Positions 1 to 55,303 of a stretch of DNA of 64,000 nucleotides are shown here, piece after piece. Both the position numbers and the translations under genes were made by a program. The DNA is from Escherichia coli (lineage in GTDB: Bacteria > Pseudomonadota > Gammaproteobacteria > Enterobacterales > Enterobacteriaceae). Under the pieces are notes generated by a model. It saw nothing but the letters and a program-made list of their open reading frames with translations. It did not search any database and had not been told where the DNA came from. Position 1 is the stretch's first letter. Each line of letters opens with the position of its first letter. The DNA is taken from assembly GCF_030013205.1 (NCBI RefSeq), contig NZ_CP122648.1; one strand, 5' to 3'.

Positions 1-697
1 TGAGGAACAAATCACCACTATTATGACCAAAACGATCGTTGATTAATTTGAAGTTATCCAGATCGATAAACGCGATCATTATCTTATGGTTAAGATGTCG
101 GGCGAGAGAAAACAGCGTCGTCAGGTTTTCAAAAATCGCCCGCCGATTCGGTAGCCCGGTTAACGAGTCGGTATACGATTGCGCAATCAGCGCAGCATTG
201 GCTTCGCGCAGCTGTTCAACCAGTGCCTCTTTTTGAATATATTGTGCAATCAGTCCGGCGAATAACTGTAAAACCTGTTCCGCGCGTTCACTCCACTGGC
301 GCTTCTCACTACTGGCGGCGCAAAGCGTGCCATAGAATGATCCATCCGGTAAGTGAATTGGCGTGCTCAGAAATGTGGTGATGCCAAGATTGCGTGCCGC
401 AATACAGTCGCCCCAACGGTCAGGGACTTCATCGCTGAAAAAGCAGTTTTCATCAATGGCGCGTTTGCATAACGAGTAATCCCAGGAGACGGTAAAATTC
501 TCCGGGATGTGCATTTTCTGGCTGTTACGGGCAAACATAATATGCTGCAGGCGCGCTTCGACATCCACTTTGGTCAGGTAGGTTGATTCCATATCAGTGA
601 CCATTTCCAGCATCTCCAGAAGCTGTCGGACCAGACTTTCCAGTGACTGTTCTTTGGCAAGGGATTGCGAGACGCGGGCGATAATCTGATCTGACAC
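1..697 (-). CDS. dgcP: Diguanylate cyclase DgcP (YeaP), GAF-GGDEF protein; N-terminal 232 codons only, gene runs off the window start
   Basis: Manual minus-strand translation from GTG at 695-697 reads MSDQIIARVSQSLAKEQSLESLVRQLL...GHNSGDLFL with the frame open to position 1; not in the ORF track because it has no stop inside the window. Confidence 0.85.
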   Translation of the reverse strand, partial: MSDQIIARVSQSLAKEQSLESLVRQLLEMLEMVTDMESTYLTKVDVEARLQHIMFARNSQKMHIPENFTVSWDYSLCKRAIDENCFFSDEVPDRWGDCIAARNLGITTFLSTPIHLPDGSFYGTLCAASSEKRQWSERAEQVLQLFAGLIAQYIQKEALVEQLREANAALIAQSYTDSLTGLPNRRAIFENLTTLFSLARHLNHKIMIAFIDLDNFKLINDRFGHNSGDLFL

Positions 698-879
698 GAA
701 ACAACTCCAGGATACGGCGGGTAAATGCTGATTATTTAATCTTTGCTGGCATGATAAAACATCATCAACAAAGATGAAACAAGGCGTAATATGATTTGAG
801 TGAATGTAATAAAAATAGTGCTGCAAAACAAAACGATACCGCGATACTCTAAGTCTGGATAAATATGTGAGATCAATAA

Positions 880-1134
880 ATGAAAATTATCAGTTTTGTT
901 CTGCCTTGCTTGCTGGTCATGGCTGGTTGTTCAACCCCTTCTCAGCCAGAAGCACCCAAACCGCCGCAGATTGGTATGGCAAATCCGGCGTCGGTCTATT
1001 GCCAGCAGAAGGGCGGGACGCTCATTCCAGTGCAGACAGCGCAAGGGGTCAGCAACAATTGCAAATTACCGGGCGGTGAAACGATTGATGAATGGGCATT
1101 GTGGCGACGGGACCATCCGGCTGGTGAAAAATAA
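880..1134 (+). CDS. yoaF: DUF333 family lipoprotein YoaF (84 aa)
   Basis: ORF 880..1134; signal peptide with lipobox LVMAGC; matches remembered YoaF. Confidence 0.85.
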   Translation: MKIISFVLPCLLVMAGCSTPSQPEAPKPPQIGMANPASVYCQQKGGTLIPVQTAQGVSNNCKLPGGETIDEWALWRRDHPAGEK

Positions 1135-1155
1135 CCGCCGGATGCTGTACTAAAA

Positions 1156-1503
1156 TCACAAGCTACGTAGCCAGTCGGCCAGCACCAGCGCATGGTTCTG
1201 CGTGGTGTTTTTGGCTGAGTAGAGCAGGGTCAGCGGCTGTTTTTTGGCGATGTCCGCCAGCCGCTTTCCTTCTTGCTCGTGTTGCGCCAGTTCTGCAAGA
1301 TATTGCTCGCGAAAGGTTGCAAAATCGACGACTTCGCCGTGAAAGGCTTTGCGCAGTTCCGTTGACGGCGTGATTTCTTTATCCCACTCATCAAGGGCTA
1401 AATCGGTTTTTTTGATACCGCGCGGCCAGAGGCGGTCGACCAGTACGCGATATCCATCGCTCTGTTCAGCCGGATCATAAACGCGTTTGCACTGAATATT
1501 CAT
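1156..1503 (-). CDS. yeaO: DUF488 family protein YeaO (115 aa)
   Basis: ORF 1156..1524 trimmed to internal ATG at 1503 (MNIQCKRVYD...) to match 115 aa. Confidence 0.8.
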   Translation of the reverse strand: MNIQCKRVYDPAEQSDGYRVLVDRLWPRGIKKTDLALDEWDKEITPSTELRKAFHGEVVDFATFREQYLAELAQHEQEGKRLADIAKKQPLTLLYSAKNTTQNHALVLADWLRSL

Positions 1504-1557
1504 CTTGTTTGTTCTCCCTTTCACGCATGATTGGTCACGTCACTATAGCACCGGATA

Positions 1558-2739
1558 TTAGCGAATTTCTTTGTCTCTCCCGGCGCAAAGTCCGAAAATC
1601 GCCATCAGTAGTGAAAGTATGGCAACACCCATCAATGGTATGGACCAGTCACCGTTAGTATCGTGTATTTTACCCATCAGCGGCGGCCCACAGGCTGCCA
1701 GCAAATACCCGACGGATTGTGCCATCCCCGAGAGTGCCGCCGCCTGATGCGCAGAACTTGCCCGAAGACCAATGAACGTCAACCCCAGTATCATTGTTGC
1801 GCCGGAACCAAAACCGAAAAGCAGAGTCCAGGTGATCGCGTGCGCTGGCATAAAGCAGAGCCCAACCGCGCCCACTGCGCACATCAAGGCAACGAACGCT
1901 GCAATACCACGCTGATCTTTCACATGATGTAAGAAAAGTGGGATCAGCAAACCGGGAGCTGCTGTGGCTAGTTGCAGCAAACCATGCAGTGAACCCGCCT
2001 GTGCTTCGCTATAGCCGTGACTGATGAGGATCGCCGGAAGCCAGCCAATAATCACGTAATAGACCAGTGAGTTGATCCCAAGAAACAATGTTACCTGCCA
2101 GGCAAGCGGAGAACGCCAGATACCCCGAGTATGTAAGGCGCGTGAGGTACTCAAATTTGCATGTTGTTGACTTCGCCACTGTGGCAGCCATAAACAAAGA
2201 GCCAGCAGAGGAAAACACATCAGCATGAGCAACGCGCCTTGCCAGCCAAAACCGTTCAAAGCCAGCGGCACGACCATAGCCGATCCCAGTGCCGCTGCAG
2301 CTCCCATTGTCAGGGAATATGCGCCGGTAAGTCTGGCGACGGAATGAGGGAAATCGCGTTTAATTAATCCTGGCAGTAAGACATTGCCTAATGCAATTCC
2401 ACCGCCAATGACCGCTGTACCGCCAAATAATAAGTAAGGCGAAGGGAGAGAGCGAATTGCGATACCAGCACAGATCAAAAGTAACGCGGCAAACAGGCTA
2501 CGTTCCATACCAAAACGTCGCGCCACCGGGGCAGCCAGAGGTGAGATTAGCGCAAAGGCTAATAATGGCAGGGTTGTCAATAAGCCGGTTTGCGCCGTCG
2601 TCAGCGAGTAAGCGGAACGAATCGTATCCAGTAACGGTGCTGCGCCGGTAAAGGTGACGCGTAATGTTGTGGCAATCATTAAAATGCCAGCGATAAGGAC
2701 AATCCTGTTTTTGCCGCTTAATGAAGTTGAACAGGTCAT
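1558..2739 (-). CDS. nimT: MFS transporter NimT (YeaN), 393 aa
   Basis: ORF 1558..2739; 12-TMS hydrophobic profile typical of MFS. Confidence 0.85.
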   Translation of the reverse strand: MTCSTSLSGKNRIVLIAGILMIATTLRVTFTGAAPLLDTIRSAYSLTTAQTGLLTTLPLLAFALISPLAAPVARRFGMERSLFAALLLICAGIAIRSLPSPYLLFGGTAVIGGGIALGNVLLPGLIKRDFPHSVARLTGAYSLTMGAAAALGSAMVVPLALNGFGWQGALLMLMCFPLLALCLWLPQWRSQQHANLSTSRALHTRGIWRSPLAWQVTLFLGINSLVYYVIIGWLPAILISHGYSEAQAGSLHGLLQLATAAPGLLIPLFLHHVKDQRGIAAFVALMCAVGAVGLCFMPAHAITWTLLFGFGSGATMILGLTFIGLRASSAHQAAALSGMAQSVGYLLAACGPPLMGKIHDTNGDWSIPLMGVAILSLLMAIFGLCAGRDKEIR

Positions 2740-2835
2740 ATGCTTCTCATTGTTACAAACGAGGCTGTACCTTACCGTTTTTATTGTTATGTTGAATCAA
2801 GCTAAAATGACAAATTATCGCTAAATTCGGACAAA

Positions 2836-3657
2836 ATGATGCACAGGTTGAATCTCAATGGCTATGAACCCGACCGACACCATGAAGCCGCGGTCGCATT
2901 TTGTATTCACGCCGGAACGGATGAGTTAACCAGTCCTGTACATCAGCACCGCAAAGGACAGCTGATACTGGCGCTACATGGTGCAATTACCTGTACGGTG
3001 GAAAATGCTTTGTGGATGGTGCCACCGCAATATGCGGTTTGGATACCGGGCGGGGTGGAACATAGCAATCAAGTGACAGCTAACGCTGAACTCTGTTTTC
3101 TGTTTATCGAACCCAGCGCAGTGACAATGCCGACAACCTGTTGCACATTGAAAATATCGCCCTTATGCCGGGAATTAATTTTAACCCTGGCAAACAGGAC
3201 GTCGACTCAGCGTGCTGAGCCGATGACCCGCAGATTAATTCAGGTCCTGTTTGATGAACTCCCTCAGCAGCCACAACAACAGCTGCACCTACCCGTTTCT
3301 TCTCATCCTAAAATTCGCGCGATGGTGGAGATGATGGCGAAAGAGCCCGTCGAGTGGGGGTCATTGGGGCAATGGGCTCGCTTTTTTGCGATGAGTGAAC
3401 GCAATCTTGCCCGACTGATAGTGAAAGAGACGGGGTTGAGTTTTCGCCAGTGGCGTCAGCAGTTACAGCTGATTATGGCGCTTCAGGGATTAGTGAAAGG
3501 CGACACTGTACAGAAAGTTGCTCATACGCTGGGGTATGATTCAACAACGGCCTTTATTACTATGTTTAAGAAAGGCCTGGGGCAAACGCCAGGCCGATAT
3601 ATTGCGGGATTAACTACTGTTTCCCCACAATCAGCGAAACCAGACCCGCGGCAATAA
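2836..3657 (+). CDS. nimR: AraC/XylS-family transcriptional regulator NimR (YeaM), 273 aa
   Basis: ORF 2836..3657; C-terminal AraC-type HTH; divergent from nimT. Confidence 0.85.
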
Positions 3658-4060
3658 GCGGGCCAACCGGTACGCCGCGAAACAGCGCCACGCCCAAAAC
3701 AGTGCCCACCAGCAGCCCGGCGACCAGTTGCGGCTGGCTGCCCATTAACGTCACGCCGCGCCCACCTAGCCAGGAGACAATAACGCCTACTGCAATTGCC
3801 ACCAGCGATTTCCAGTTCAGAAACGAGTGAATCAGGGTTGAGGGCGGTAGCGTCCCGCTGGCGATGGGGGCCATAACGCCAATCGTCAGAATGATTATCC
3901 CGATACTTAGCCCCTGTTTTTCAATCCACGGGAAAAAGGTGCTTAACGGTGTGACGCGGACAATGATTAACACCAGAATTGAAACGGCGACAGTGGTGTT
4001 ATGACTGATAAAGCCCAGCGCAGCTAACCCGAGCAGGATCAGCAAAGTGACATCAAACAT
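3614..4060 (-). CDS. yeaL: UPF0756 inner membrane protein YeaL (148 aa)
   Basis: ORF 3614..4060; highly hydrophobic; 3' end overlaps nimR convergently. Confidence 0.85.
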
Positions 4061-4229
4061 CGTGGTTTCCTTGCCAAAGAATAATAAGCCTGCTTACTTT
4101 ACGCTTGCTGCAGGAAGGAAGTAGAAAATCTTTACGTTTTTTGCATAAAAAATCAGGCGAACTGTCATCAAACTGCAATTTGTGCACGCTAACAATAACG
4201 TGAAAACAGCTATCTCCCGGGGGCATACT

Positions 4230-4334
4230 ATGAACGATCAAATGTTCGTCGAGACACTGATTATCACGTCATCGTTTTTTGCCATTGCTGTTGTGCTGGT
4301 TTTGTCCGTTCTTCTTATCGAACGGACAGGCTAG
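4230..4334 (+). CDS. yoaI: Small membrane protein YoaI (34 aa)
   Basis: ATG at 4230, TAG at 4332-4334; translation [34 protein letters not shown]; below the ORF-track size cutoff. Confidence 0.6.
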
Positions 4335-4838
4335 TTACGCAGTGCGTCGGAAATTGACCAGTTCTGGTTGCGCAATGCGCAAATAATCCGCGGTTTTCAA
4401 AATAACGGATTTATCCAGCATGCCTGCATTGAAGGCGATTTCATCAAATCGTTCGAAGAGTAGGGGATCGGCAACCAGTTTGAGTTTTGGATGGAAGCTG
4501 AAAGGGGGGATCGCGCCGAAGACACAGCCTGTGAGTTCATCGACTTCCGCCGGGCTGACCAACGAAGCGCGTAATCCGCCTATATGGCTGGCGAGTTGGC
4601 TCAGATCGGCCTGTTGATCGGCCGCGAGGATCGCCAGAACATGTTGATTTACACCATTGCCTTTGACTTTACATACCAGTGCCTTAGCCCCCTGGCCTAA
4701 AGCGGTGCCACGAATTTCTGACACCGCTTCACATTTACCTACCGCTTCATGGGTAACGACGCGGAAGTCAGCACCTTCTTGTGATAATAAAGCGATTAAC
4801 CGCTGATGCGTCACGCTTCCTTTAGCCATTTCAGTCAT
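4335..4838 (-). CDS. yeaK: YbaK/ProX-like aminoacyl-tRNA deacylase YeaK (167 aa)
   Basis: ORF 4335..4838. Confidence 0.85.
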   Translation of the reverse strand: MTEMAKGSVTHQRLIALLSQEGADFRVVTHEAVGKCEAVSEIRGTALGQGAKALVCKVKGNGVNQHVLAILAADQQADLSQLASHIGGLRASLVSPAEVDELTGCVFGAIPPFSFHPKLKLVADPLLFERFDEIAFNAGMLDKSVILKTADYLRIAQPELVNFRRTA

Positions 4839-4880
4839 TTCATGCTCCTGAGATTACAAGCAAACAACCACAGAAGGTTA

Positions 4881-6371
4881 TCATGAACGGCTGTTTTTGT
4901 TCTGCTTATTGACATATAAACGCTCATCGGAAGCTTTATACGCATCATGTAACGTATCGTTTTCTTTCATCGCGTAAATACCGGAAGAGAAGCCGATCTC
5001 TTTCTGCGGCGCGATATGTTGCAGACGTTTTTCGATACGTTCAGGCAGTTGTGCTGCAATTTGCGGCGTCGAATCGACAAGAATGATGCAGAATTCATCG
5101 CCACCGAGTCGGATGGCATAATCACTTTTACGAATCGACTGTTTAATCGCCTGAGCTAATAACGTAATCGCTAAATCCCCCTCCTGATGACCAAGGGTGT
5201 CATTTATTTGCTTTAACTTGTCCATGTCAATTGCAATAAACATCACCGAAGAACCGGATTGCACCAGTTTTTGCAACCGCTGCTCCAGTTCAGGGGTTAA
5301 AATTTTGCGATTATAGAGTCCAGTCATCGCATCACTAATATTTTCTCGCGACACATTTTGGTATAAACGGAAGTGCATCCGTACCATATTCAGCAAAATT
5401 AACGCCGTCAAAATCCAGAACAGAACGCTTTTCCACGAAGACGTGATAAAGTAAAGAATATCAATGGATAACGAGACACGAATGCCGCCCGGTAAGTCAT
5501 GGACGTAACTGACATACTGGAACAGATTATCTTCGCTCTGGTTGATGATAATGTCGCGCCCCGAATCGGTATCGGTTAGCGTGACATTGAGAAAACGCCA
5601 GAGGAGAGGGCGGTCATGAGTGTAAAAGATATTCCGCAGATTGTTTTTGTTAATATCCAGCAGCACAATCCCTTTTAGCTGCCCTGCGACATATACCGGC
5701 GTCAGCAAACTCATCACGTTCTGTTTAGTACGCTGATCCTGGTAAATGCTCGATAAAACGGTACGCCCGGTAAATACCTTTTCAATATCTTTGCGATCGA
5801 TGCCAATACTTCCTGACTGCAGGAAAGACCAGTTATTCATCGCAAAGTATTCAACATTAACCGGCTCATAAAAATAGACATAGCGGTCATTGAGATCGAG
5901 ATAATAGTGAAATTTCTCTTCGGCCATCCCAAGACCTGAACCGTAATCATCCTGGTGGCGGTTGCCTTCCACTGCCTGATCAAAAGCGGGTAATAGTGCT
6001 GCAGCTTCCACAATTGTGTCGCAGTCAGTGGATGCGGTTTGTAGTGTGCCGCGTAAGCCCGGGTATTTATGGGCAGTCAGGTTTAAGCCATGGGTATTAT
6101 TGGCAGACTCAAAAGCCTCGCAGATGGCGCGCCGCTGTTCTGGCGACACTTCCGACTGCTCAGCAGCAAGAGCGCGCATCACATGCGCGGCAATACTCTG
6201 ATTCTGATACTTATCATAAAGAAAGGAGGAGTCTGCTCTCTGCACGATATAGCGCAGATAGGCACTCATTGCTCTGTCGCTGGCGACAAGTTCAAAAATA
6301 AGGAAGGAAGATGTCAGCACAATGACACTTGCGGCGATAAAATGCCGGAGCATTCTATGGTGCAATTTCAT
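4881..6371 (-). CDS. dgcJ: Diguanylate cyclase DgcJ (YeaJ), membrane sensor with canonical GGDEF
   Basis: ORF 4881..6551 trimmed to ATG at 6371 (MKLHHRML...) to give 496 aa; motif RLGGDEFCIIL. Confidence 0.85.
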   Translation of the reverse strand: MKLHHRMLRHFIAASVIVLTSSFLIFELVASDRAMSAYLRYIVQRADSSFLYDKYQNQSIAAHVMRALAAEQSEVSPEQRRAICEAFESANNTHGLNLTAHKYPGLRGTLQTASTDCDTIVEAAALLPAFDQAVEGNRHQDDYGSGLGMAEEKFHYYLDLNDRYVYFYEPVNVEYFAMNNWSFLQSGSIGIDRKDIEKVFTGRTVLSSIYQDQRTKQNVMSLLTPVYVAGQLKGIVLLDINKNNLRNIFYTHDRPLLWRFLNVTLTDTDSGRDIIINQSEDNLFQYVSYVHDLPGGIRVSLSIDILYFITSSWKSVLFWILTALILLNMVRMHFRLYQNVSRENISDAMTGLYNRKILTPELEQRLQKLVQSGSSVMFIAIDMDKLKQINDTLGHQEGDLAITLLAQAIKQSIRKSDYAIRLGGDEFCIILVDSTPQIAAQLPERIEKRLQHIAPQKEIGFSSGIYAMKENDTLHDAYKASDERLYVNKQNKNSRS

Positions 6372-6551
6372 GATAAATGGCACTCCTTCGGTTAGTGAAA
6401 CGAGAAAACCAGATAAAGTTCGATTGCGGCCTGGCACAGGGGCGCTAATTATACTCATCTCTGCGCCGCTGGGGAGGGGAAATTTAGGGGTAATAGTAAT
6501 AAATTGTATGCAAAAGCCACGCAAAAAGCATGGCTCTGAATATTTTTGCAC

Positions 6552-8027
6552 TTAAATATGATGAATAATCACTTTGTTGCCCCCCTCGCTTTTCGCTTCG
6601 CGTAAGGCTTTATCTGCTTCCGTCATGACAAGCGAGATATTACGTGTGTCACCCGTTGAAAAAACCGTGCCAATACTGATGGTCATTTGCTCAGGAACAT
6701 CATATCTGTTACTAAAGCCGGTCAGGAGTTCGACATTTTTACGCATACGTTCCGCAATGATTTTTGCCTGGGCACTATTGAGTTCGGTAAATAGCAAGCC
6801 AAACACCTCACCCTCCAGTCGCGCTAAAATATCATCGGGGCGGATGCTTTGCTGGATAATATCGACAATTGAAACCAGCACTTTATCACCCACACGATGT
6901 CCCCATTGGGCATTGATGCGTTTGAACTGATTAATATCAACCAGCATGACACAGAAGTCCTTAACAACAGGTCGCGACAATAATGACTCTACGCTGTTGA
7001 AAAAGTAGCGCCGATTATAAATATTGGTCAGTACATCATGAACTGCCAGTTTGCTGGAGAGTTGCAGTTCCTGAAAAATGTTATAAATCAGAAAAGACAC
7101 CACAAACAGTTTACTGGAAACTTCAATCCCGCGACTGATATACCAGATGGTATAATTATACTCATCCAGAGTCAGTAGAAGTAAGTTGCAGCATAGCGAT
7201 GCCAGACATAATAATGCTATTAACGGCCATAGTTCGCTGGCTAATCGTGTACGCATGATAATAAAGAACAGTAAAAATGCCCACAGACAAACCAATATTT
7301 TTGTATAGTTGATTCCCCAGGTCGCAGTATGGTTGTCCGGACAGTAATCGACGACATACAAAGAATAGTCAGCGTTATAACTGCTCAGATTGTGTGCCAG
7401 AAGGGGAAAAACTAAAAAAGGGATCAGCGCCAGCAACAGTATTCCCGTTTTTTTCTTATTATTGTTCAGGATGTTGTCTTTACCATAACAAAAGAGCGCC
7501 AGCGAGGTTAAACAAATGAAACTGAGTTGGCGGAAAATATAGAAAATAGAAACATCATTCGACTTTGTCTGGATCAGTGTACTGCCGTTGATTGGTTTAT
7601 GGATAATTACAATGGTTTCAACTAAATAGATAAGGCCACTTAAAAACGCAAGGCTTAAAATGAGTGTTGGTAAAATTTGTTTGTTAGTGAAATATTTCAT
7701 TAACATGAAAAGAAAAATGACGGCGTTAAGGAAAAACAAAGCCACAACAACCATCAGGTAATTCATCTGTGGGATGAGTTTTACATTCGTGTTTTCGTTA
7801 TATAAGTTAGTAATGCAAAATAAAATTAACGTCAGCAATAAACTGAAAATAAAAAAGCCTTGAGCTTTTAATTTTTGTGTACCCATAGAAGCCATAAAAA
7901 GGAGAGCAATGTGAGTGCTGGATTTTATTGATGGCAGAGATATATAGTTTTGACCAGGATCAATTTTCGTTGACGATAAAAAATAATTAAAGAATAACCC
8001 CAGGGAAATACGTATTGACCGAATCAT
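6552..8027 (-). CDS. dgcI: GGDEF-domain membrane protein DgcI (YeaI/CdgI) with degenerate active-site motif
   Basis: ORF 6552..8027 (491 aa); multi-TMS N-terminus; active-site motif reads EGEVF instead of GG(D/E)EF. Confidence 0.85.
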   Translation of the reverse strand: MIRSIRISLGLFFNYFLSSTKIDPGQNYISLPSIKSSTHIALLFMASMGTQKLKAQGFFIFSLLLTLILFCITNLYNENTNVKLIPQMNYLMVVVALFFLNAVIFLFMLMKYFTNKQILPTLILSLAFLSGLIYLVETIVIIHKPINGSTLIQTKSNDVSIFYIFRQLSFICLTSLALFCYGKDNILNNNKKKTGILLLALIPFLVFPLLAHNLSSYNADYSLYVVDYCPDNHTATWGINYTKILVCLWAFLLFFIIMRTRLASELWPLIALLCLASLCCNLLLLTLDEYNYTIWYISRGIEVSSKLFVVSFLIYNIFQELQLSSKLAVHDVLTNIYNRRYFFNSVESLLSRPVVKDFCVMLVDINQFKRINAQWGHRVGDKVLVSIVDIIQQSIRPDDILARLEGEVFGLLFTELNSAQAKIIAERMRKNVELLTGFSNRYDVPEQMTISIGTVFSTGDTRNISLVMTEADKALREAKSEGGNKVIIHHI

Positions 8028-8173
8028 TTTTCCGAATGATTGTTTTCTGGAACTAAATTGTGTAAAGGTTATGCTGTCATATTTAAAGCGATTGTAAGAT
8101 AATGTATGTAATAAATGAGATAATTTACAGTGAGCTAAAAATCAGCCAGGCGATAATGACCCGGCTGATAGTT

Positions 8174-9469
<1,296 letters not shown>

Positions 9470-9569: not shown

Positions 9570-11504
9570 TTAAGACGATTTACGTACGCGCAAATACCAT
9601 TCGCACAGTAAACGCACCTGTTTACGGGTGTAGCCTTTTTCCATCATACGGTCGACAAAATCGTCGTGTTTCTTTTGCTCGTCGGTTGACGTTTTGGCGT
9701 TAAACGAAATAACCGGCAACAGCTCCTCGGTATTGGAGAACATTTTCTTCTCAATAACCGTGCGCAGTTTTTCATAGCTGGTCCAGTTCGGATTGCGTCC
9801 GCTGTTATTCGCTCTGGCGCGCAGTACGAAGTTAACAATCTCGTTGCGGAAATCTTTTGGATTACTGATCCCCGCCGGTTTCTCGATTTTCTCCAGCTCG
9901 GCGTTAAGAGACTCGCGGTCAAACAACTGCCCGGTATCCGGATCGCGATACTCCTGATCCTGAATCCAGAAATCCGCGTAGGTAACATAACGGTCGAAAA
10001 TGTTTTGCCCATATTCGGAATAGGATTCAAGGTAGGCCGTCTGGATCTCTTTGCCGATAAACTCGGCATATTTCGGGATCAGATAACCTTTCAGGAACTC
10101 CAGATAGCGTTCTGCCTGCTCTTGCGGGAACTGCTCGCGCTCGATCTGCTGTTCCAGGACGTAGAACAGATGAACCGGGTTTGCCGCCACTTCTACATGA
10201 TCGAAGTTGAACACGCGGGAGAGGATCTTAAACGCAAAACGCGTCGACAGACCGTTCATCCCTTCATCGACACCGGCATAGTCACGATATTCCTGATACG
10301 ACTTGGCTTTGGGATCGGTGTCTTTCAGACTTTCGCCATCATAAACCCGCATCTTTGAATAAATGCTGGAGTTTTCTGGCTCTTTCAGGCGCGAAAGAAT
10401 GGAAAAACGTGACAGAGTTTCCAGCGTGCCAGGGGCGCAGGGGGCGTGAGTCAATTCACTGTGATTAAGCAATTTCTCGTAGATTTTGATCTCTTCGGAA
10501 ATGCGCAAGCAATACGGCACCTTCACGATGTAAACACGGTCGAGGAAGGCTTCGTTGTTTTTGTTATTACGGAAAGTGACCCATTCGGATTCGTTCGAGT
10601 GGGCGAGAATAATCCCGTTGAACGGCAGGGCGGAGATACCTTCCGTCCCGTTGTAGTTACCTTCCTGAGTGGCGGTTAGCAAGGGATGCAGCACTTTAAT
10701 CGGTGCTTTAAACATCTCAACGAATTCCATGATCCCCTGGTTGGCGCGGCACAGTGCACCGGAATAGCTGTAGGCGTCCGGGTCATTCTGCGCGTAGTGT
10801 TCGAGTTTACGAATATCGACTTTCCCAACCAGCGCGGAGATGTCCTGGTTGTTCTCATCACCGGGTTCCGTTTTGGCGATAGCAATTTGTTGCAAAATTG
10901 ACGGCCAGACCTTCACTACCCGGAACTTAGTGATATCGCCACCAAATTCATGTAGGCGTTTTGCCGCCCACGGCGACATGATGGTGCCGAGATAACGGCG
11001 AGGAATGCCATACTCTTTTTCCAGAATCTGCGCATCTTCCTGCGGATTGAAAAGACAGAACGGATGATCGTTGACCGGGCTACGCTCACCGTTGGCGCTC
11101 AATACATAAATCGGTACGAGCTGCATTAATGATTTCAGTCGCTCAGCAAGCGATGATTTACCCCCACCCACAGGCCCCAGCAGATACAGGATTTGTTTCT
11201 TCTCTTCCAGCCCCTGAGCCGCGTGTTTCAGATAAGAGACAATCTGTTCAATCGCGTCTTCCATGCCGTAAAACTCTTCAAACGCCGGATAACGTGCAAT
11301 GACCCGGTTAGAAAAGAGTCGAGAAAGTCTGGGTTCCTGGGCTGTATCGACCATGACAGGCTCACCGATAGCCATCAATAGCCGCTCAGCCGCGTTGGCA
11401 TAAGCACTGCGATCTTGCCGACAAGTGGTAAGAAACTCCTGCAGTGTGAACTCTTCGTCCTTGGCAGCTTCATATCGCTGGCGATAGTGATCGAATATAT
11501 TCAT
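9570..11504 (-). CDS. yeaG: PrkA-family Ser/Thr protein kinase YeaG, 644 aa
   Basis: ORF 9570..11504; Walker A-like GPVGGGKSS. Confidence 0.9.
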   Translation of the reverse strand: MNIFDHYRQRYEAAKDEEFTLQEFLTTCRQDRSAYANAAERLLMAIGEPVMVDTAQEPRLSRLFSNRVIARYPAFEEFYGMEDAIEQIVSYLKHAAQGLEEKKQILYLLGPVGGGKSSLAERLKSLMQLVPIYVLSANGERSPVNDHPFCLFNPQEDAQILEKEYGIPRRYLGTIMSPWAAKRLHEFGGDITKFRVVKVWPSILQQIAIAKTEPGDENNQDISALVGKVDIRKLEHYAQNDPDAYSYSGALCRANQGIMEFVEMFKAPIKVLHPLLTATQEGNYNGTEGISALPFNGIILAHSNESEWVTFRNNKNNEAFLDRVYIVKVPYCLRISEEIKIYEKLLNHSELTHAPCAPGTLETLSRFSILSRLKEPENSSIYSKMRVYDGESLKDTDPKAKSYQEYRDYAGVDEGMNGLSTRFAFKILSRVFNFDHVEVAANPVHLFYVLEQQIEREQFPQEQAERYLEFLKGYLIPKYAEFIGKEIQTAYLESYSEYGQNIFDRYVTYADFWIQDQEYRDPDTGQLFDRESLNAELEKIEKPAGISNPKDFRNEIVNFVLRARANNSGRNPNWTSYEKLRTVIEKKMFSNTEELLPVISFNAKTSTDEQKKHDDFVDRMMEKGYTRKQVRLLCEWYLRVRKSS

Positions 11505-55204: not shown

Positions 55205-55303
55205 CGTGCTACGCCTGTCAGGCCTATTCGACTCATGCAATATATTGAATTTGCATAGTTTTGTGGGGCGAATAAGGCGTTCACGCCGCATCCGGCGTGA
55301 ACA
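55205..55303. repeat. BIME/REP elements between cho and nadE
   Basis: AGGCCTGACAGGCGTAGC-like and AAGGCGTTCACGCCGCATCCGGCG REP motifs; the 64-aa ORF 55179..55373 here is probably spurious. Confidence 0.55.

Follow-up and report, generated by a model that had tools for sequence, protein, structure and literature searches.

The first 8,027 nucleotides of a 64,000-nucleotide stretch of Escherichia coli DNA (contig NZ_CP122648.1 of RefSeq assembly GCF_030013205.1; the whole stretch is referred to as the window) contain three genes for GGDEF domain proteins, namely dgcP (yeaP), dgcJ (yeaJ) and cdgI (yeaI). As stated in a preliminary description of this DNA, all three are present. Each lies on the minus strand and features a Pfam GGDEF match (PF00990; 5.6e-41, 3.4e-40 and 9e-45, respectively). 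Analysis of the locus, taken together with published work, makes it likely that the three proteins evolved independently of each other and respond to different inputs, and that CdgI is a non-catalytic membrane protein which binds cyclic di-GMP (c-di-GMP) at its inhibitory site (I-site) and acts via contacts between GGDEF domains. Architectures, motif states, paralogy, synteny and selection were determined here, while c-di-GMP binding, GGDEF-GGDEF contacts and the sensing of autoinducer-2 (AI-2) are taken from the papers cited.

The gene cdgI (6552-8027, minus strand) encodes a multi-pass membrane protein in which the integral-membrane sensor domain MASE4 (residues 88-319, positions 7071-7766; PF17158, 1.5e-48) is followed by a degenerate GGDEF domain (residues 328-485, positions 6573-7046), the latter being recognized by Pfam as well as by alignment to the solved cyclases 6zxm and 3ign. 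About seven to eight hydrophobic segments are present, with hydropathy peaks between residues 57 and 287. Translation confirmed the earlier account of a membrane sensor with the motif EGEVF, which reads RLEGEVF in context and occupies residues 405-409 (positions 6801-6815). The same account held both glycines of the motif to be altered, but alignment to RLGGDEF and RVGGEEF revealed that only the first is exchanged for glutamate and the second is kept. Its claim of an altered catalytic acidic pattern applies to the fourth position, where valine replaces glutamate, but not to the third, where the glutamate remains an allowed acid. With these two exchanges, CdgI features no intact GG(D/E)EF active site (A-site). 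Comparison with DgcT, DgcQ, DgcJ, DgcP, other homologues and the two solved cyclases disclosed further changes: DIDHFKKVND of DgcT corresponds to DINQFKRINA in CdgI (DxD to DxN and ND to NA), and LYEAKETGRN to LREAKSEGGN (GRN to GGN). The first aspartate, the asparagine and the GD of the substrate- and metal-binding set are retained. The I-site RPDD (residues 396-399, positions 6831-6842), located five residues upstream of the motif, is intact, and R396, D399 and R429 were invariant in 19 of 19 aligned MASE4-GGDEF homologues. The suggestion that the protein with EGEVF lacks cyclase activity and serves as a c-di-GMP receptor or interaction module is thus supported by the lost A-site residues, the intact RPDD and the literature, in which it is already published (Sarenko 2017, PMC5635695).

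The preliminary description named the third gene dgcI, a designation that belongs to YliF. Both RefSeq and published work call it cdgI (yeaI), and it is none other than yeaI (b1785) of E. coli K-12, with the same neighbours, the same EGEVF and the same RPDD, and its DNA is 98.4% identical to that of MG1655 and W3110. The protein shares 98% identity with the K-12-type cluster (P0001), which leaves only allelic differences in about 12 residues, half of them within a doubtful N-terminal stretch discussed below, so that the published properties carry over. According to these reports, CdgI has the same N-terminal domain as DgcT and DgcX and combines a degenerate A-site with an intact I-site (Sarenko 2017, PMC5635695). 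The purified protein is stated to bind c-di-GMP, with reference to Fig. S4B of that paper, and the text describes strong heteromeric contacts of the CdgI GGDEF domain with several other GGDEF domains, whose identity is given in a figure only (PMC5635695). Moreover, CdgI was toxic upon overexpression, and no protein was detectable under standard conditions (PMC5635695). The authors proposed that CdgI may inhibit cyclases by heterodimerization in a manner modulated by c-di-GMP (PMC5635695), and the protein was later termed "catalytically inactive" (PMC10459773). The motif EGEVF of YeaI had been tabulated before (Spurbeck 2012, PMC3484386); a full-text literature search for "EGEVF" itself returned nothing relevant.

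From these data a division of labour among the three proteins may be proposed. DgcP would be located in the cytoplasm as a GAF-GGDEF cyclase that lacks an I-site, and DgcJ would be a cyclase with two transmembrane segments, a periplasmic GAPES1 domain as input and product inhibition via its I-site. CdgI, a MASE4 protein that passes the membrane several times, with its catalytic A-site lost and the RxxD I-site kept, would produce no c-di-GMP but bind it at the I-site and engage, from its position in the membrane, the GGDEF domains of other proteins. It would consequently act as a c-di-GMP-responsive regulator, probably an inhibitor, and not as an enzyme. Degenerate GGDEF proteins which use the I-site as c-di-GMP receptors are exemplified by PopA of Caulobacter and PelD of Pseudomonas. 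By analogy, CdgI may follow the same logic of a non-catalytic GGDEF domain retaining RxxD, although N-terminal modules and outputs are not the same and no specific sequence relationship exists beyond the domain.

The history of the degenerate motif was traced by a protein search that recovered CdgI orthologues down to 57% identity. Among the homologues with at least 64% identity, which stem from E. coli and divergent lineages of it, from E. albertii and from two metagenomic lineages, the first glycine is lost and GRN is replaced by GGN in every case. The motif variants within this clade are EGEVF, EGEEF, DGEVF, EGDVF, EGNVF and EGKRF. The next relatives, P0020, P0023 (Citrobacter sp. Awk 4) and P0024 (Citrobacter sp. 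NCU1), possess GGEEF and all canonical residues. These Citrobacter MASE4-GGDEF proteins share 57-61% identity, the domain order, the low guanine-plus-cytosine (GC) content and the slot between yeaH and dgcJ with CdgI. Unlike CdgI, they keep GGEEF, DIDHFK..ND and LYEAK..GRN, and thereby look like active cyclases. Synteny was compared in E. albertii (L004), the metagenomic lineages (L007, L008), Citrobacter sp. NCU1 (L006) and a relative (L005). The order yeaH-[MASE4-GGDEF]-[GAPES1-GGDEF]-yeaK is common to all these loci, with yeaG and mipA upstream wherever the contig reaches that far, and because of this shared order the Citrobacter genes are regarded as positional orthologues. In a neighbour-joining tree the degenerate sequences formed a single clade within the GGEEF proteins, with the Citrobacter genes as its sister group. 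This points to a single loss of the first glycine, and with it of the A-site, on the Escherichia side, once this lineage had separated from that of the Citrobacter orthologues. Motif positions three and four seem to have drifted after the glycine was lost, with RxxD having stayed invariant. The ancestor of CdgI would hence have been an active-looking MASE4-GGDEF cyclase, placed between yeaH and dgcJ already in the common ancestor with Citrobacter, and the I-site and the fold would have remained under purifying selection while the rest of the A-site drifted.

Selection was assessed by the ratio of nonsynonymous to synonymous substitution rates (dN/dS), which is given for the pairs E. coli-E. 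albertii and L005-L006 only, dS being saturated in all other comparisons. For the first of these pairs, cdgI showed a dN/dS of 0.074 over 447 codons at a dS of about 1.0, with 0.077 for the GGDEF part and 0.070 for the MASE4 part; the neighbours dgcJ, yeaK and yeaH reached 0.032, 0.025 and 0.010, respectively. Thus, cdgI evolves about two times faster than dgcJ yet, given its ratio of 0.074, is clearly under purifying selection. The GC content amounts to 0.39 in cdgI (0.36 in the MASE4 part), 0.36-0.38 in its orthologues, 0.39 in dgcT (L002, 4877-6235) and about 0.50 in the neighbouring genes. A recent horizontal transfer was considered as the cause of the low value and rejected, since it is common to all orthologues including those of Citrobacter and to dgcT (0.36-0.39).

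Several points weigh against CdgI as a non-catalytic, c-di-GMP-binding partner of other GGDEF proteins. The inhibitory role is one that we infer, and with the partners being named in a figure only, a link to DgcJ is not given by the published text (PMC5635695). Furthermore, YeaI was listed among the proteins with "verified diguanylate cyclase activity" with reference to Sanchez-Torres 2011 (Spurbeck 2012, PMC3484386), the biofilm defect of a CFT073 yeaI deletion in no-salt lysogeny broth (LB) was rescued by the cyclase WspR (PMC3484386), and the natural allele P0007 reads EGEEF with both acidic residues intact. In addition, truncated cdgI alleles without the GGDEF domain are common in the protein database, with lengths of 345 (P0013), 295 (P0019) and 281 amino acids (P0025) and cluster sizes of 639, 249 and 934 members, respectively, compared to 10,877 full-length sequences. 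Likewise, Shigella flexneri 2457T lacks cdgI and carries a truncated dgcJ (PMC11327459), so that some lineages can do without the gene.

Part of these observations would fit a CdgI that still works as a diguanylate cyclase, perhaps a weak or conditional one, despite its EGEVF. Beside the listing as a verified cyclase, the WspR rescue and the P0007 allele, such an activity would agree with the reported hyper-motility of a K-12 yeaI deletion, as known from cyclase mutants (PMC3484386), with the retained second glycine and third-position acid, and with the RefSeq product name, which still reads "sensor domain-containing diguanylate cyclase". Nevertheless, the fourth-position glutamate is replaced by valine in CdgI. 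In PleD and WspR this glutamate of the GGDEF motif is essential. The further canonical changes (DxD to DxN, ND to NA, GRN to GGN) speak against catalysis as well, and close orthologues differ freely from one another at motif positions three and four (E/D/N/K and V/E/R, respectively), as expected of a site which is not used for it. The biofilm defect of the CFT073 mutant persisted in glycerol medium in spite of WspR (PMC3484386). Where rescue by an unrelated cyclase does occur, it indicates a dependence on c-di-GMP and not its synthesis by YeaI, and a receptor would behave alike. As later work also terms CdgI catalytically inactive (PMC5635695, PMC10459773), a remaining cyclase activity is considered very unlikely.

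The opposite view regards cdgI as a functionless relic in the course of being lost, with the degenerate motif reflecting the decay of an unexpressed gene. The undetectable protein in K-12 under standard conditions (PMC5635695), the frequency of the GGDEF-less alleles, the absence from S. flexneri 2457T (PMC11327459), the drift of the A-site residues and a deletion without strong phenotype in a laboratory lineage (PMC8117528) are all in line with decay. It is, however, hardly compatible with the dN/dS of 0.074, and of 0.077 in the degenerate domain itself, or with full-length cdgI DNA in 5408 of 5426 complete genomes. Across the MASE4-GGDEF family, no variation occurs at the I-site and in 52 further alignment columns, the purified protein is described as folding and binding c-di-GMP and its domain as making specific contacts (PMC5635695), and deletion phenotypes were reported in both CFT073 and K-12 (PMC3484386). 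Decay thus appears unlikely, and purifying selection since the loss of the A-site argues for a retained non-catalytic function of CdgI. As a separate observation, two single-sequence chimeras (P0026 and P0035; 532 and 560 amino acids) were found, in which in-frame deletions join the N-terminal MASE4 part of CdgI to DgcJ. A similar deletion, delta-cdgI-dgcJ', arose in a laboratory K-12 lineage with minor effect (PMC8117528).

The second part of the proposal, i.e., the independent origin of the GGDEF proteins, contradicts the preliminary description, which took cdgI and dgcJ as similar in architecture and as the probable products of a tandem duplication of one membrane-bound GGDEF gene. At first sight, the two genes invite this interpretation, being adjacent on the same strand, similar in length (491 and 496 amino acids) and both encoding membrane-anchored proteins with a C-terminal GGDEF domain. 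The architectures are nonetheless different, with a multi-pass MASE4 domain in CdgI and a periplasmic GAPES1 domain framed by two transmembrane segments in DgcJ, and these N-terminal domains are unrelated. The alignment that had been suggested as a means of dating the duplication was carried out, and only the GGDEF domains align (BLASTP; 28% identity over 153 amino acids). In a MAFFT alignment of the GGDEF domains of five proteins, identity was 25.8% between CdgI and DgcJ, 24.2% between CdgI and DgcP and 28.3% between DgcJ and DgcP, compared to 45.3% between CdgI and DgcT and 34.4% between DgcJ and DgcQ. CdgI and DgcJ are therefore no closer to each other than either is to DgcP (24-28%) or DgcQ (31-34%). 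The homology of CdgI with DgcT extends over the full length (BLASTP; 38% identity over 449 amino acids, E value 2e-99), even though dgcT is located elsewhere in the genome at the pga locus. On the NCBIfam model of DgcJ, CdgI reaches 66 bits, less than on the models of PleD (131), SiaD (118), DgcQ (83.5) and DgcN. At the DNA level no similarity between cdgI and dgcJ exists, as only two short matches with 71-75% identity were found, which corresponds to chance level. In addition, both architectures of the pair are already present in Citrobacter.

On account of the unlike sensor domains, the low GGDEF identity of 26-28%, the closer relationship to DgcT, the NCBIfam scores and the missing DNA repeat, a recent tandem duplication is refuted, and we attach next to no probability to it. 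An ancient duplication of the GGDEF module only is indistinguishable from the common ancestry of all GGDEF domains. Published work has independently assigned YeaI to a single MASE4-GGDEF family along with YcdT and DgcX (PMC10459773). CdgI resembles these active cyclases in architecture and DgcT (YcdT) also in GC content and in RPDD; it differs from both by having lost GGEEF and the other canonical catalytic residues, which DgcT and DgcX keep.

The gene dgcJ (4881-6371, minus strand) encodes 496 amino acids in the order first transmembrane segment, periplasmic GAPES1 domain (residues 31-304, positions 5460-6281; Pfam 7.1e-151), second transmembrane segment and GGDEF domain (positions 4890-5336; Pfam 3.4e-40). 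Hydropathy places the transmembrane segments at about residues 8-29 and 309-334. Translation, these two segments and the GAPES1 match bear out the description of DgcJ as a membrane sensor with a canonical RLGGDEF motif. GGDEF was located at positions 5091-5105 in a check of the coordinates, and an I-site, RKSD, is present at 5121-5132. DgcJ scores 747 bits on the NCBIfam equivalog NF040885 (cut-off 500), which covers residues 4-495. Because of this coverage, the ATG at 6371 is favoured as the start codon over a GTG at 6551, which abuts the cdgI stop codon; the 556-residue form that the latter would produce was rejected. In Salmonella YeaJ and its homologues, including that of E. coli, the GAPES1 domain is reported to bind AI-2 with Y210 and D239 as key residues (PMC9637222), and both residues are present in DgcJ of the window. 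With its equivalog score, GAPES1 domain, Y210 and D239, DgcJ would thus match YeaJ of Salmonella Typhimurium (STM1283), an AI-2-sensing GAPES1 cyclase. DgcQ was examined as a full-length paralogue and rejected, as only the second transmembrane segment and the GGDEF domain align, with 30% identity. Judged from sequence, DgcJ is without a close paralogue among the proteins compared.

The third GGDEF gene, dgcP, starts at position 697 on the minus strand and runs off the window start, leaving residues 1-232 of 341 within the window. This part includes the entire GAF domain (positions 233-649); the GGDEF domain is represented by its first third (from position 175 downwards). Translation, RefSeq and Pfam agree with its classification as a partial GAF-GGDEF gene. 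The complete protein, taken from locus L001, features GAF at residues 17-155 (GAF_2, 1.4e-10) and GGDEF at 175-330 (5.6e-41), with no transmembrane segment. The sequence within the window ends at SGDLFL, short of RLGGDEF, so that the motif lies beyond the window start and was seen in L001. No RxxD I-site is present in DgcP, the aligned residues being QNGE.

The start codon of cdgI deserves attention, as the annotated length of 491 amino acids exceeds that of the orthologues, which are called at 447-448. In E. albertii, L007 and L008, in-frame stop codons interrupt the upstream extension and the starts are equivalent to M45, and Met1 of DgcT aligns with M48 of CdgI. Six differences between CdgI of the window and the K-12-type protein fall within the first 47 residues, compared to about six in the other 444. 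The annotated start (ATG 8027) is therefore probably located 44-47 codons too far in the 5' direction, with M45 (position 7895) or M48 (position 7886) as the predicted true start and 7886-8027 (minus strand) as a doubtful extension. A CsrA-type GGA hairpin (AATCATT-CGGAAA-AATGATT) overlapping the ATG at 8027 was also considered and rejected. It is not part of the minimum free energy structure, its z-score relative to shuffled sequences is +0.66, and its GGA is not conserved in E. albertii. Repression of cdgI by CsrA has been reported (PMC5635695). RefSeq product names for cdgI are inconsistent, alternating between "sensor domain-containing diguanylate cyclase" and "GGDEF domain-containing protein", and the label "diguanylate cyclase" overstates what the sequence supports.

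Upstream of cdgI, a terminator-like hairpin with an 11-bp stem followed by a T-run was found after yeaH in a terminator scan (8141-8169, minus strand). It is kept in E. albertii, where the base changes are compensatory (GCCGGG/CCTGGC to GTCAGG/CCTGAC). A promoter-like site with a conserved -35 box TTTACA lies at 8066-8039. On the basis of the conserved hairpin and the promoter-like site, cdgI looks like a transcription unit of its own, split from yeaGH. The spacer between cdgI and dgcJ (6372-6551) measures 180 bp in the window and 166-199 bp in the orthologous loci examined, and the scan revealed no terminator-like site within it. The adjacency of both genes with a spacer of this size predates the split of Escherichia and Citrobacter. 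As a speculative extension, which we consider improbable at present, cdgI and dgcJ may form a conserved two-gene module, in which CdgI, once its catalysis was lost, would serve as a c-di-GMP-gated membrane partner or inhibitor of the AI-2-sensing DgcJ and possibly of DgcP.

According to the RefSeq annotation, with which the list of open reading frames agrees, the gene order is yeaP-yoaF-yeaO-nimT-nimR-yeaL-yoaI-yeaK-yeaJ-yeaI. Between dgcP and dgcJ, the genes yoaF (880-1134), nimR (2836-3657) and yoaI (4230-4334) are located on the plus strand, and yeaO (1156-1503), nimT (1558-2739), yeaL (3614-4060) and yeaK (4335-4838) on the minus strand; yeaH (8174-9457) and yeaG (9570-11504), both on the minus strand, follow beyond cdgI. 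Positions 1-8400 of the window are 100% identical to E. coli ETEC4079 (NZ_CP122643.1), and another 49.9 kb of the window are likewise identical to this record. The same 8,400 positions were recovered with at least 80% coverage at 95% identity or more in 5398 of the 5426 complete E. coli genomes, and the locus as such in 5418. The yeaP-yeaI segment is thus a conserved, near-identical core-genome locus of E. coli with its position kept. For 19 GGDEF domains, the number given for K-12 (PMC5635695), and uniform placement on 4.64 Mb, 0.009 triples within 8 kb would be expected, which means that the clustering of the three genes is beyond chance. The interval between yeaL and yeaO varies: nimR and nimT are absent in E. 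albertii (L004, 8834-9725), and nimR in L007 (5508-7651). Owing to the absence of both genes, the GGDEF trio of E. albertii spans only about 6.2 kb.

Elsewhere in the window, ydjE, encoding a major facilitator superfamily transporter (24436-25794, plus strand), is interrupted by a stop at codon 326 and flagged as a RefSeq pseudogene. The genes topB and gdhA are separated by an inserted transposase of IS1397 (IS3 family) with programmed frameshift (33516-34864, plus strand). The small RNA ES036 (CssrF; 55220-55262, minus strand) represents the sole Rfam match at the gathering threshold in the window (38.9 vs. 37.6 bits).

Literature and RefSeq already cover the three genes as well as the degenerate motif of CdgI, its intact I-site and its binding of c-di-GMP. 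Accordingly, the practical value of this analysis lies in corrections, as the gene is cdgI and not dgcI, the neighbours are not duplicates, the product name claims too much, and the 491-residue start is probably wrong. A modest new point is of evolutionary nature, i.e., a loss of the A-site which seems to have occurred once and was followed by purifying selection (omega of about 0.07). The Citrobacter GGEEF orthologue and CdgI form a natural pair for experimental comparison. If the proposed cdgI-dgcJ module existed, CdgI would represent a built-in feedback element for a local source of c-di-GMP, and the GGEEF proteins of Citrobacter and the EGxxF proteins of Escherichia would offer a ready system for studying the change from an enzyme to a receptor.

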